A stretch of 28,912 nucleotides of DNA from a virus: UHGV virus genome UHGV-1359478; one strand, given 5' to 3'. Below, piece by piece: positions 1,436 to 5,552 of this stretch. The notes under the pieces were generated by a model. That model made no database searches. It worked only from the letters and a program-made list of their open reading frames with translations, and was not told the origin of the DNA. The translations under genes were made by a program, and so were the position numbers. Position 1 is the stretch's first letter, and each line of letters starts with the position of its first letter.

Positions 1436-1711
1436 TCACGACGCCGATGACAGTAACATCGTCCAGGGCTNNNNNNNNNNNNNNNNNNNNNNNNNNNNNN
1501 NNNNNNNNNNNNNNNNNNNNNNNNNNNNNNNNNNNNNNNNNNNNNNNNNNNNNNNNNNNNNTTGGCTACCCTGCTTTGGCTTCAGGGAGATATCCAGTAC
1601 AACGTAACCACCAGATCGCTCGAAGACGAGCGTATTTGGACCGACATTGCAGATCGAGTTAACCGTTAATCGCTGTTCCGTGTAGTCCGTCGCCGGTGAT
1701 GGAAAGCCCAT
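1436..1711 (-). CDS. Hypothetical protein, interrupted by the assembly gap (true length unknown)
   Basis: ATG at 1711..1709 overlaps the stop of the upstream gene (TAATG); GGGGAGGG Shine-Dalgarno 7 nt upstream. The ORF runs through the N run at 1471-1561. Confidence 0.35.
   Translation of the reverse strand: MGFPSPATDYTEQRLTVNSICNVGPNTLVFERSGGYVVLDISLKPKQGSQXXXXXXXXXXXXXXXXXXXXXXXXXXXXXXXPWTMLLSSAS
1471..1561. other. Assembly gap (91 N)
   Basis: Run of n characters in the sequence. Confidence 0.99.
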
Positions 1712-1950
1712 TACAGAACCCTCCCCATGTTGGCCATCATCCACAGGCGGTTTTCGCTGTGCTCTGCCGTTTTGTCGACGAAATAAGACTGCTCACGTGC
1801 GATCCAGGCGTTAGCCTCCACCTCGGAAAAGTGGATGCCGCGCCGGCGCAGCGCTGACACAAAATCCTTTGTGTGCAGGTACTGGTATCCTTTGGGGTTA
1901 CGCAATACCGACTCGCGGAATGCCTGATTGATGTCTGACTGTCGAAGCAT
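1711..1950 (-). CDS. Hypothetical small protein (~79 aa), function unknown
   Basis: ORF MLRQSDINQAFRESVLRNPKGYQYLHTKDFVSALRRRGIHF... between the two fiber genes. Start is either ATG at 1950 or GTG at 1971. Confidence 0.5.
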   Translation of the reverse strand: MLRQSDINQAFRESVLRNPKGYQYLHTKDFVSALRRRGIHFSEVEANAWIAREQSYFVDKTAEHSENRLWMMANMGRVL

Positions 1951-2041
1951 GATCTGCCATCCGATGAACACTGTTTTTATATACAGTAGTTTTATCGAGA
2001 GGGAAGATCAACCCCGTTCAGTCTGCGTAGGTTTTTTGTGC

Positions 2042-2329
2042 TTAGAGGGCAACAGCCCCAGCAAACTCTTCAGCTTGCATAAGTTGCCCTTCAGCCTGTT
2101 CTGTCCACGGCTTTGATGACAAAGCGTCCAGAGTTACCGCATACTCTCCTGCGTTAACTTTCGCCGCATCATTATATCGAACAGATACTGAGGCTTTAAC
2201 TTGACCTGCATCATCCTGTCTGACGCTTTCTACTGCATAAATTAAATCTATTTCAACATCCTTGTCGCAGAGATATCCTCAGAGATAATAAATCTGGACA
2301 GTTTTTACTGCTGAAATTTTAAAAGCCAT
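2042..2329 (-). pseudogene. Small ORF directly downstream of fiber 1, interrupted by an in-frame TGA at 2279..2281
   Basis: AAGGA Shine-Dalgarno then ATG 6 nt later. MAFKISAVKTVQIYYL-TGA-GYLCDKDVEIDL... continues in the same frame for 78 more codons. The stop lies in the first copy of a direct repeat TATCTCTGAGGA/TATCTCTGCGAC. Confidence 0.35.
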
Positions 2330-2338
2330 GATAATTCC

Positions 2339-5224
2339 TTATGCTGCAGAGTAATATTTATCTCCGAATATGAGATTGGCAATCTTCCTTGCCGCGACTT
2401 TCAGCGTGTAGTCGAAAGTTACGGTGTACCCGTTATCGTTCATGTGGTTGTAGTTCCCAACCGGGACGTTATATACCGACGAGTAGCCGCCCACCTCTAC
2501 GCCATACTTAAAGAACGACTTTTCACAATCGGCGAGGAACGCGCCTTTTTGACGTGCGACGACCCTTTGCATATTATTCACCATTTCGAACCGCACATCC
2601 CCCTGCACCTTAACACCGCTGCCGGACCAGTCTTTTGTTACAAAGGAAACTGACGGTGCAGGGTAAAGAATATCCTCAGCGATGGACTGCAGGTTAACGT
2701 GCCGGATCGCTGTCGAGTAGCTTCCACTTGCCGGGATTGCCTCCTGGACAGTTATGGTATTCCGGTCAGAGGAAATGGCTGTGATAGTGTAGTTGCCGGC
2801 GTTGTCTCCGCTTTCTACGCGCAGAGTATGCCCTGGCTTCAGAATATCGCCGCCATAATTCGGGTTAGCAAAGTTACTTTGCGTGATAGTGTTAGCGACT
2901 GCGTCAAAGACATAATTACTTGTTACATTATATGTCCTAACTGGCCAGAACAGTGGGTTTCCGCCGGGGATTGTGGGATACGTTTGGGACATTTCTACGT
3001 TATGGTGCGGCGTAGTACAGATGATCGGTATCGCCCCCCGTGCCAGGCACAGGTCAACCAGCTCCTCTAGCGTCCGTTTCTGCCCCGGGAAAGTGAGTCC
3101 CATGTTGAAGTTGCCAACAGGTGCATCATTCATGCCGCCAACAATCAAAACAAAGTCAGAGGTTGAATAAGGCGAATTAGCTAACTGGGCAGCGAACTGC
3201 TGGAATGCCTGGGTCGGTATGCACTGGTTATCATCGATGATGTCGAACTCGCCATACTGCTTAAGCTCTTCCTTCAAGGCGTTGACGAACAGCGTGTTCG
3301 GAGCATAAGGAGCACCCGCCGCTCCGCCGCCAGTGGAACCAGCCCCAACACCCACAGAAGGCCCAATGGACGTACAAATTATCTGGCGCTTTGTGACGGT
3401 CTTTACCCCCGCGGACCAAGTTATAGCACCGAATGGCGACTGGTCTGAAGATACCCCGGTGCCCACGAGTTTATCCGCCAGAGCAGCATAAGGGTCTGTC
3501 AGCGCCCCCTTGAGGGTCGTAACGTCTTTTGAGAGGGTCTGTATATCTGTGGTTGGATCACCGGCATACAACAGCTTAAAGTTATTCTGCGGAGAGCCAC
3601 GGTATTGCACAGTGGCTGGCATTGCCGCCCGCAGTTCTCCACCAGTTAGCGCAGTATTCGCCCCTTTGAATAAGTTACGCGTGACTGTGTTACCGTACAT
3701 GTCGGTGATGACAAGAGTCATAGCACCTGTATTTGCAGCAACTGGCTCAAAAGTAAGCTGAGTTCCATCTCCAAGTAACCCGGGAATTGTTAATGCTACT
3801 GAGTTAGGACTGGTAGCATCACTGGTAACAGTTGCCTTTGAATAACCATTAAGTACACGACTTCTGTCAGCCGGGTAGGTCAGCATCCGAAAATCTGCTG
3901 ATGAAAAATTAAATTTGATTAAATACGTGTAGCCCGCTACCAAATCTCCCGCAGCGACGTTGGTCCCGTTATTTTGCTTAATCTGCCTCGCCGTACCACC
4001 ATTAACGGAAAGAGTTGGCGTGCGGGTTATATTAGTGGCGCTTGGCGTAAAAAGAAAGACACGATCAGACGCAACAATTCCAGGGATTGCAGATGCGGTA
4101 CCGGAATAGGCATCTCCAGTATTAGCAACGCCAGACAATAACGCTACGCTATTTAATTCAAGCGTGGAAATTCTTGACGCAAGTTCAGCAGCTACTGGGC
4201 CGGATGCCACAAGGACAAAATTGTTAGCAGTCCCAGTGCGGAATTCCATCAGTGCGGGCTGATTGAGAAGCAACTCATTCCCAACTAAAGCTGCATTATT
4301 TTGTTTCTGTATTGCCCGAGTAACCGAGTTCCCCCTGGCATCTGTCACGGTAACGCTAACAGCCGCCGTATTCAAAATAGGAGACAGGAAATAAATCAAA
4401 CTGCCATCCACTAATAATCCGGGGATAGTGATAGCAATGGTATTAGCCGCACCGCTACTCACAGCTGTAGCAGACTGGTAACCCATTGGCATTGCGGATG
4501 GCATTTTCCGTCCAGTAGGCTGCAGCGTTCCTGAGGTGTTAATAACCTCAATCGCAAGAGTTGCGTCGTCAGCGCTTCGATAATACGCGGTTGATCCGAT
4601 GGGGATATTTCCAGCGTCTGCATCAGCCTGCGCAGCCGCCAGCGTAGGGAATTCGCGTATGGTATTAGTTATAGATCCCTGTCCGGGGAACTCAGCAACC
4701 TCTTGTGCTACGCCTGAGTTATTTTTGTAATAACGGAAAGCAAGGACATTTCCTGTCCCCTGGGGAACGCGGAAGTATTGCCCGCTCGTCGTCGCTGCAA
4801 GTCCAGCCGCCGTATCAGCAAAGGTTGATTTATTGTCACCAAACTCCGACGCGCTAAGTGCATATCCCTGCGCCTCTTCCGCTGAATCAGATGCCTGTTT
4901 TGCAAAATCAGCGATCACATTCAGCGTGTCAGCGGTCATCATGTTGGCAACCATATCATTGGCCGCCCACGCTCGCGCCAGCGTCCCTTCCTGTGCGCGT
5001 TCAATCGTGAAGATGTCTCCAGCCTTGGCTGTCACGTTCACGATCTCAACCTGTGAGCCAGTGGCGGCATCGGTGAGAGTGAGCTTAAAGTAACTCTCGC
5101 CTGCCACAGCATCAGGGAACTCGGCACCAGTTCCAGCGCTAACGATCAGCGACGTGTCGGTTGCGCTGATAGCAGAAGCCAGCGTGCTTTCTGCGTTGTT
5201 TGTAGCCAAAAGGGTTAGTGCCAT
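2339..5224 (-). CDS. Tail fiber protein 1 (961 aa): shared N-terminal anchor, three internal tandem repeats, C-terminal domain with a GxND motif (possible SGNH-type esterase)
   Basis: Long ORF; likely start is ATG at 5224 with a GGAGGA Shine-Dalgarno (the track ORF starts 7 codons earlier at a non-ATG). N-terminus homologous to fiber 2. Repeated ~90-aa units containing IPGLL.DG...GN.VTR. C-terminal LIVGGMNDA motif. Confidence 0.8.
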   Translation of the reverse strand: MALTLLATNNAESTLASAISATDTSLIVSAGTGAEFPDAVAGESYFKLTLTDAATGSQVEIVNVTAKAGDIFTIERAQEGTLARAWAANDMVANMMTADTLNVIADFAKQASDSAEEAQGYALSASEFGDNKSTFADTAAGLAATTSGQYFRVPQGTGNVLAFRYYKNNSGVAQEVAEFPGQGSITNTIREFPTLAAAQADADAGNIPIGSTAYYRSADDATLAIEVINTSGTLQPTGRKMPSAMPMGYQSATAVSSGAANTIAITIPGLLVDGSLIYFLSPILNTAAVSVTVTDARGNSVTRAIQKQNNAALVGNELLLNQPALMEFRTGTANNFVLVASGPVAAELASRISTLELNSVALLSGVANTGDAYSGTASAIPGIVASDRVFLFTPSATNITRTPTLSVNGGTARQIKQNNGTNVAAGDLVAGYTYLIKFNFSSADFRMLTYPADRSRVLNGYSKATVTSDATSPNSVALTIPGLLGDGTQLTFEPVAANTGAMTLVITDMYGNTVTRNLFKGANTALTGGELRAAMPATVQYRGSPQNNFKLLYAGDPTTDIQTLSKDVTTLKGALTDPYAALADKLVGTGVSSDQSPFGAITWSAGVKTVTKRQIICTSIGPSVGVGAGSTGGGAAGAPYAPNTLFVNALKEELKQYGEFDIIDDNQCIPTQAFQQFAAQLANSPYSTSDFVLIVGGMNDAPVGNFNMGLTFPGQKRTLEELVDLCLARGAIPIICTTPHHNVEMSQTYPTIPGGNPLFWPVRTYNVTSNYVFDAVANTITQSNFANPNYGGDILKPGHTLRVESGDNAGNYTITAISSDRNTITVQEAIPASGSYSTAIRHVNLQSIAEDILYPAPSVSFVTKDWSGSGVKVQGDVRFEMVNNMQRVVARQKGAFLADCEKSFFKYGVEVGGYSSVYNVPVGNYNHMNDNGYTVTFDYTLKVAARKIANLIFGDKYYSAA

Positions 5225-5246
5225 GTATCCTCCGGGATTAGGCAAT

Positions 5247-5271
5247 AAAAAAACCGCAAGCGCGGCCTTTT
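5247..5271. terminator. Short GC hairpin flanked by A7 and T4 (weak bidirectional terminator candidate)
   Basis: AAAAAAA-CCGC-AAGC-GCGG-CC-TTTT. On the minus strand the stem is followed by T7. The stem is only 4 bp, so this is weak. Confidence 0.3.
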
Positions 5272-5273
5272 AA

Positions 5274-5552
5274 ATGGTGAATATTATGAATAATGCTTCT
5301 ATTGCTATTTTAAAAATACTTTTAGGAACTCTATCTACTTTATTAATACTCCTTTCGTTCGCCTTGCTTATTATTTTATTTGGATTTCTTTTTCAGCAAG
5401 GAATGCCGCCAATAGATATGATAAAAATGTCATCCATTTTGTTTTTATCAATAGTTGTGCTGTATATAATTTGTCAGAGCGTTAAATCACATCTGTATAT
5501 AACAATAGATAATCGAGATAAAAACCTAATCAAATATCTCAACCGTGACTGA
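5274..5552 (+). CDS. Moron: small hydrophobic (two predicted TM helices) protein encoded antisense to the late operon in an AT-rich island
   Basis: 92-codon open frame in a strongly AT-rich 300-bp segment, where random ORFs of this length are unlikely. Product MNNASIAILKILLGTLSTLLILLSFALLIILFGFLF... is highly hydrophobic. No minus-strand ORF longer than 14 codons in this interval. Opposite strand to all neighbours. Confidence 0.5.
   Translation: MVNIMNNASIAILKILLGTLSTLLILLSFALLIILFGFLFQQGMPPIDMIKMSSILFLSIVVLYIICQSVKSHLYITIDNRDKNLIKYLNRD

Follow-up and report, generated by a model that had tools for sequence, protein, structure and literature searches.

The small open reading frame behind the first tail fibre gene of UHGV virus genome UHGV-1359478 belongs to a conserved fibre-linked gene, and the stop codon that interrupts it is very probably a recent single-base G-to-T nonsense mutation that leaves the allele effectively null. 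In the window, by which we mean the whole 28,912-nucleotide stretch that was analysed, this frame (ORF1) lies on the minus strand, as do all the late-region genes around it, and runs from an ATG at 2329 through MAFKISAVKTVQIYYL to a TGA (2281–2279), after which 78 codons stay open up to a TAA at 2044–2042. The first-pass annotation had reported an in-frame TGA at codon 17 followed by 78 open codons, and the window sequence bears this out. Its further statement that no alternative start follows holds as far as position 2122, where the earliest in-frame ATG, GTG or TTG is a TTG, but starting there would leave just 26 aa. The features of the region are collected in Table 1.

Table 1. Features of the fibre region of the window, with the basis for each assignment.
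Feature	Position	Strand	Basis or remark
Fibre 1: 961-aa tail fibre, SGNH/GDSL esterase domain	2339–5224	−	Lipase_GDSL_2 (weak match); tail-fibre PHROGs
Spacer of 9 nt, fibre 1 stop (TAA) to ORF1 ATG	2330–2338	−	AAGGA Shine-Dalgarno overlaps the stop
ORF1: conserved 95-codon gene, broken at codon 17	2042–2329	−	Homologue alignments; without a Pfam or PHROG family
In-frame TGA replacing the conserved Gly17 codon	2279–2281	−	Relatives have GGA or GGT/GGC
Tandem quasi-repeat TATCTCTGAGGA/TATCTCTGCGAC	2264–2287	−	Codons of Y-L-(G)-G-Y-L-C-D
LexA (SOS) box TACTGTATATAAAAACAGTG, CTGT-N8-ACAG	1969–1988	−	Motif scan
ORF2: 79 aa, phrog_3893	1711–1950	−	PHROG match, E 3e-40
ORF3: UmuD′-like/HumD-like, 105 aa in relatives	1392–1711	−	phrog_3469, E 1.5e-46; N run interrupts the window copy
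N run, 91 N	1471–1561		89 nt in L005 and L037
Fibre 2: 343-aa glycine-rich-domain fibre	349–1380	−	Gly_rich_2, E 3e-15; PHROGs
Lambdoid attP: P′ arm, core GCTTTTTTATACTAA (minus strand), P arm, sib-like terminator	1–345		Matches attP region of phage 434 and lambda-like phages

The interrupted gene and its family

An intact allele of ORF1 is carried by L005, a prophage that occupies the lambda attachment site (ybhB–bioA) and has the gene order of the window. Over positions 301–2499, excluding the N run (~2.1 kb), the window and L005 differ at one base, 2281: where the window has T on the minus strand, L005 has G, and the change turns a Gly codon, GGA, into TGA. The protein encoded by L005 (P0001) is 100% identical to the ORF1 read-through product with Gly17, and the TGA allele has zero further changes relative to L005. 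A recent pseudogene was among the options offered by the first-pass annotation, and a lone G-to-T change at Gly17 in a frame otherwise identical to the intact L005 allele supports it.

A protein search with the read-through sequence as query, codon 17 being set to Gly, returned 86 homologues (P0001–P0086), mostly 95 aa long, from E. coli, Klebsiella and Raoultella. Beyond these, a profile search of 1.84 billion representatives gave a single cluster at 50% identity, together with roughly six distant proteins (89–100 aa) of the same layout; matches in several stretches of giant proteins were taken as compositional and set aside. No family covering ORF1 was found in Pfam, NCBIfam, PHROGs or PADLOC, and a back-translated search for relatives in GTDB genomes produced 61 pattern matches of which tblastn confirmed 0. 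The family of ~95 aa is marked by the motifs MxFK..KTVQI.YLGGYLC...VESVRQD...EQAE, which the read-through product fits, while ORF1 as it stands in the window departs from the family's uninterrupted reading frame by its TGA at codon 17. Gly17 never varies across the 81 aligned members, and the alignment keeps a constant length around it; when the 81 aligned proteins are taken together with 33 related loci, codon 17 in the other relatives encodes Gly, and Ser once. The ratio pN/pS is 0.27 for codons 1–16 and 0.23 for codons 17–90, indicating purifying selection on both sides of the stop, so the first 16 codons belong to the protein itself and are not a separate element.

An AlphaFold2 (AF2) model of the ORF1 protein has a pLDDT of 91.7; in it a long beta-hairpin (strands 2–15 and 18–38) turns tightly at Gly17-Gly18. 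Foldseek found nothing below E 0.1 for this model in the PDB. In BFVD the best matches are uncharacterised proteins of ~90 aa from the Klebsiella phages P184, Kp2 and FBKp27 (E 3e-6 to 2e-4, TM 0.7–0.8).

The stop lies in the first of two adjacent 12-mers, TATCTCTGAGGA (2287–2276) and TATCTCTGCGAC (2275–2264), which match at 9 of 12 bases and have an exact 8-mer in common. These direct repeats had been noted correctly, and the first-pass annotation had taken them to mean that a 12-nt slippage duplication introduced the stop. The tandem arrangement and the exact 8-mer are what speak for such an event, but the intact alleles read TATCTCGGAGGA TATCTCTGCGAC with the same number of codons as the window, and no length difference exists between ORF1 and the 81 aligned intact homologues. 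The proposed comparison with related phages thus refutes a duplication: since intact relatives of the same length already carry both 12-mers, nothing was inserted. Before the mutation the copies would have been alike at 8 of 12 bases with an exact run of 6 nt, and the direct repeat is the codons of the conserved Tyr-Leu-Gly-Gly-Tyr-Leu-Cys-Asp motif (YLGGYLCD). Nor is it remarkable for this window, which contains 18 adjacent exact repeats of at least 8 nt against 7.8 ± 2.5 in shuffles. The G-to-T change at 2281 does make copy 1 more like copy 2, T being the matching base there; it is conceivable that the quasi-repeat templated the change, though a match of this kind has a 1-in-3 chance of arising anyway and carries no weight. 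The related idea that the 16-codon frame is a conserved stand-alone element meets the finding that no relative examined has such an ORF. That either a slippage duplication made the stop or the short frame is an element of its own can be practically dismissed.

A third possibility is functional read-through, in which UGA would be decoded often enough to yield a useful 95-aa protein, as in the A1 protein of phage Q-beta. Of the stop codons, UGA leaks most in E. coli, and here 78 codons lie open behind it, much as a long open frame follows the in-frame UGA of Q-beta A1. Unlike that stop, however, the one in ORF1 is not conserved: it is found in 0 of 81 aligned proteins and 0 of 33 related loci, L037 being the only other record with it, and the other relatives have in its place the sense codons described above. 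The open frame is accounted for by recency, as zero other changes separate it from L005, and no conserved downstream signal was seen. Background misreading of UGA by near-cognate decoding most likely inserts Trp, which in the modelled structure would be unlikely to be tolerated at the Gly-Gly hairpin turn. Of the leaky UGA that had been suggested, a trickle of read-through may occur, but nothing points to programming. We consider functional read-through highly improbable and a programmed event very unlikely. A +1 or −1 frameshift at CTC TGA, in the manner of prfB, was also considered and rejected; the zero frame continues past the stop and relatives have a plain Gly codon.

The favoured reading is a nonsense mutation. 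A G-to-T change at 2281 in this E. coli lambdoid phage would have converted the Gly17 codon GGA to TGA, so that translation would end after 16 residues and re-initiation would be prevented by the lack of a start codon; for these two reasons the allele would be effectively null. Any traces of full-length ORF1 would come from background UGA misreading only, most likely with Trp at position 17. ORF2 and ORF3 would be spared, since a LexA box sets them apart as a unit of their own, and the phage would probably tolerate the loss of ORF1, as phages commonly do with accessory side-fibre functions. For annotation, this means that the ORF1 stop is best entered as a pseudogene made by a point mutation, or as a null allele, and neither as a recoding site nor as a duplication.

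Reality and age of the base at 2281

The exact fibre 1 protein, WP_284627090.1 from E. coli in a protein look-up, led to a second record with the same stop. This is L037, an E. coli prophage (GCA_030178115.1) that matches the window at 100% identity along 7.6 kb, TGA included, and when it is set alongside the 33 related loci it is the only carrier besides the window. The two records differ at their ends: in L037 the core GCTTTTTTATACTAA is followed by bacterial attB flank, whereas the window has the phage P′ arm there. Because P′ arm, core and P arm are intact, the window, to judge by its attP, is the excised form of the phage and L037 the integrated form of the same phage. In both L037 and L005 the prophage sits at the lambda attB, between ybhB and bioA.

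A sequencing or assembly artefact, with G as the true base at 2281 and ORF1 intact, had been listed as another option, and several observations are in its favour. The window is a draft whose N run, 700 nt away, has the wrong length; its allele is a single base from the intact one; the TGA allele is missing from the scans of GTDB, IMG/VR and JGI metagenomes; and the window and L037 may share a strain or even reads, in which case the two sightings would perhaps not be independent. Against this, the same T is present in L037, a separate record of an integrated prophage, while the window is the attP form, and a consensus error is unlikely given that the TGA occurs in records of both topologies. 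Elsewhere the late region consists of tightly packed intact ORFs, a substitution is atypical as a consensus error, and 2281 lies outside any homopolymer. The identical base in L037 therefore weakens the artefact option without fully removing it, as strain or reads may be shared, and we regard an artefact as unlikely. In our assessment the ORF1 observation is real but ordinary, namely a recent G-to-T nonsense change, with a base-call error the less likely reading.

Exact scans with a 40-mer carrying either G or T at 2281 found no copy in GTDB genomes or JGI metagenomes, and the same scan of IMG/VR found one copy, of the GGA allele. Since the database scans gave only that one GGA copy, the TGA allele is, on these sequence comparisons, both rare and recent.

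The family has also been broken a second time, independently. A 1-nt deletion that shortens A5 to A4 at codons 8–9 frameshifts the ORF1 homologue in four records, namely E. coli 20KM2222, the phage records PDP110P1 and PDP110P2, and one IMG/VR contig from an isolate genome (L001, L003, L004 [4093–4130] and L017), and the NCBI annotation pipeline calls no gene at the frameshifted homologue. A homopolymer error is conceivable for any single one of these records, yet four agree. Two different lesions in so small a family suggest that ORF1 is dispensable in lysogens.

The ORF2–ORF3 unit and the N run

ORF1 and the two frames behind it had been described as three coupled ORFs of unknown function. 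Coupling is seen between ORF2 and ORF3, where the ORF3 start overlaps the ORF2 stop (TAATG), but ORF1 and ORF2 are 91 nt apart (2041–1951) and the gap contains a LexA box. This box, TACTGTATATAAAAACAGTG (1988–1969), is a perfect CTGT-N8-ACAG that ends 20 nt before the ORF2 ATG; it has no second copy in the window, where chance would give 0, and it occupies the same position in ten relatives (L005–L010, L012, L015, L016 and L021). ORF2 and ORF3 follow ORF1 in many loci, not all, and the two units are accordingly separable. Taken together, the sequence features suggest that ORF2–ORF3 is an insert between two fibre genes with an SOS control of its own, and they place a LexA-box unit with a UmuD′-like gene in that setting. 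A promoter scan called no sigma-70 promoter for ORF2; a TTGATC-17 nt-TACTGT arrangement overlapping the LexA box, read by eye only, is a candidate.

As to function, the description stands for ORF1 and ORF2 but not for ORF3, which is UmuD′-like. It matches the PHROG named 'UmuD-like protein', and its residues 2–44 align with residues 25–67 of UmuD, so that ORF3 would begin at the start of activated UmuD′; against the NCBIfam HumD model it scores 44 bits where the cut-off is 120. The ORF2 family comprises 390 clusters, mostly from Klebsiella. ORF2 is predicted from its model to be a four-helix protein, and it has no PDB sequence match. The best Foldseek matches to its AF2 model (pLDDT 74) were calmodulin lobes at an E of about 1, which we rejected. 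Two members of the ORF2 family, P0191 and P0228, are rare fusions to C-terminal fragments of a resolvase/invertase, and these fusions suggest that in some prophages ORF2 may have recombined with a neighbouring invertase gene; BLASTP between ORF2 and the neighbouring invertase was negative.

The third frame does span the N run at 1471–1561, as had been reported, but the end given for the cassette, 1436, is a false stop; the true end of ORF3 is a TAA at 1394–1392. The run counts 91 nt in the window and the homologous stretch 89 nt in the near-identical L005 and L037; being 2 nt too long, it puts the frame across the gap out of register and creates the stop at 1436. With the end corrected, 11 nt (1391–1381) separate ORF3 from the start of fibre 2 (1380–349). 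The third ORF should therefore be read with the 89-nt gap-filling sequence, since any ORF called across the 91 N is out of frame.

Fibre association and comparison with known systems

For fibre 1 we took the ATG at 5224 as the start, which fits its 961-aa homologues, in place of the TTG at 5245 of the mechanical ORF call. The first ~110 residues of fibres 1 and 2 are 49% identical, and the two probably dock at one baseplate site, either in parallel or as alternatives to each other. An island of 30% GC (5251–5552), located between fibre 1 and the baseplate gene, contains a very hydrophobic 92-aa ORF on the plus strand (5274–5552), opposite to all late genes. Two relatives (L006 and L008) have a gene of 210–225 aa in this slot. 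The 92-aa ORF looks like a moron, and it had no PADLOC match.

The Shine-Dalgarno of ORF1 overlaps the TAA of fibre 1, which couples ORF1 to the fibre gene. In 25 of 29 fibre-module loci the ORF1 homologue begins 9 nt after a fibre of 850–1000 aa that ends in a conserved SGNH block, and in the remaining 4 a small ORF lies between fibre and homologue. Carriers of the family include phages whose baseplate is of the Baseplate_J type as well as others that have a TipJ-type tail tip, and in Klebsiella phage Magnus a weak relative (tblastn E 0.5) stands directly behind a pectin-lyase 'tail fibre' in a tailspike cluster. From these gene positions, ORF1 would work together with the receptor-binding fibre, helping its assembly or joining it as a small subunit. 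Klebsiella prophages commonly have SGNH fibres as receptor-binding enzymes, and two of these fibres were active esterases as purified recombinant proteins (PMC13123978). As the recombinant fibres were active, a helper is perhaps unneeded for catalysis and the role of ORF1 would concern assembly.

In a further E. coli prophage, L002 (NZ_LS992185.1, 1–7000), and also in L022, an 846-aa fibre and the ORF1 homologue are inverted relative to the genes for TipJ, the SGNH fibre and a 252-aa protein. The block has as neighbours a serine recombinase and a umuD of full length with a LexA box, and it looks like an invertible fibre segment comparable to Mu G or P1 C.

A more speculative suggestion, which we hold only tentatively, is that ORF1 represents an undescribed class of small receptor-binding-protein partners, a chaperone or fibre-tip subunit with no solved fold, present alike in temperate SGNH-fibre phages (E. 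coli, Klebsiella) and in lytic Klebsiella phages, and that its repeated loss, by two independent null alleles, is a tolerated or even selected switching-off of a fibre function in lysogens. What the present case does flag is a small and uncharacterised family, predicted to be well folded, that travels with SGNH-esterase fibres; its broader value is modest.

The start of ORF1 had been likened to the N-terminus of lambda Tfa. This resemblance is limited to the first 16 residues (50% identity to an approximate comparison sequence), and hhalign gives it a probability of 16%. Membership of ORF1 in the Tfa family is not supported: the hhalign match covers 16 columns at that probability, there is no match to Pfam Caudo_TAP (PF02413) at E ≤ 0.1, and no PDB fold was recovered. 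ORF1 nevertheless shares with the Tfa-type assembly proteins (lambda Tfa, Mu U and P2 G) its small size and its place directly downstream of, and coupled to, a fibre gene, though it is half their size.

ORF3 compares with UmuD′ and with HumD of phage P1 in having a start that aligns with that of UmuD′, a UmuD-like PHROG match and an upstream LexA box. It differs from them in being shorter (105 aa), in scoring below the HumD cut-off, in being paired with the 79-aa ORF2 and in having no adjacent umuC-like gene.

For the lesion itself, the comparison is with stf, the side tail fibre gene of lambda PaPa, which was reportedly found by Hendrix and Duda in 1992 to be inactivated by a single-base frameshift in a phage that is viable. 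There, too, a single-base lesion disables an accessory gene of the fibre module in a lambdoid phage that is otherwise intact and still excises. The difference is that the lesion in the window is a nonsense substitution in a small downstream gene, whereas that of stf is a frameshift in the fibre itself.
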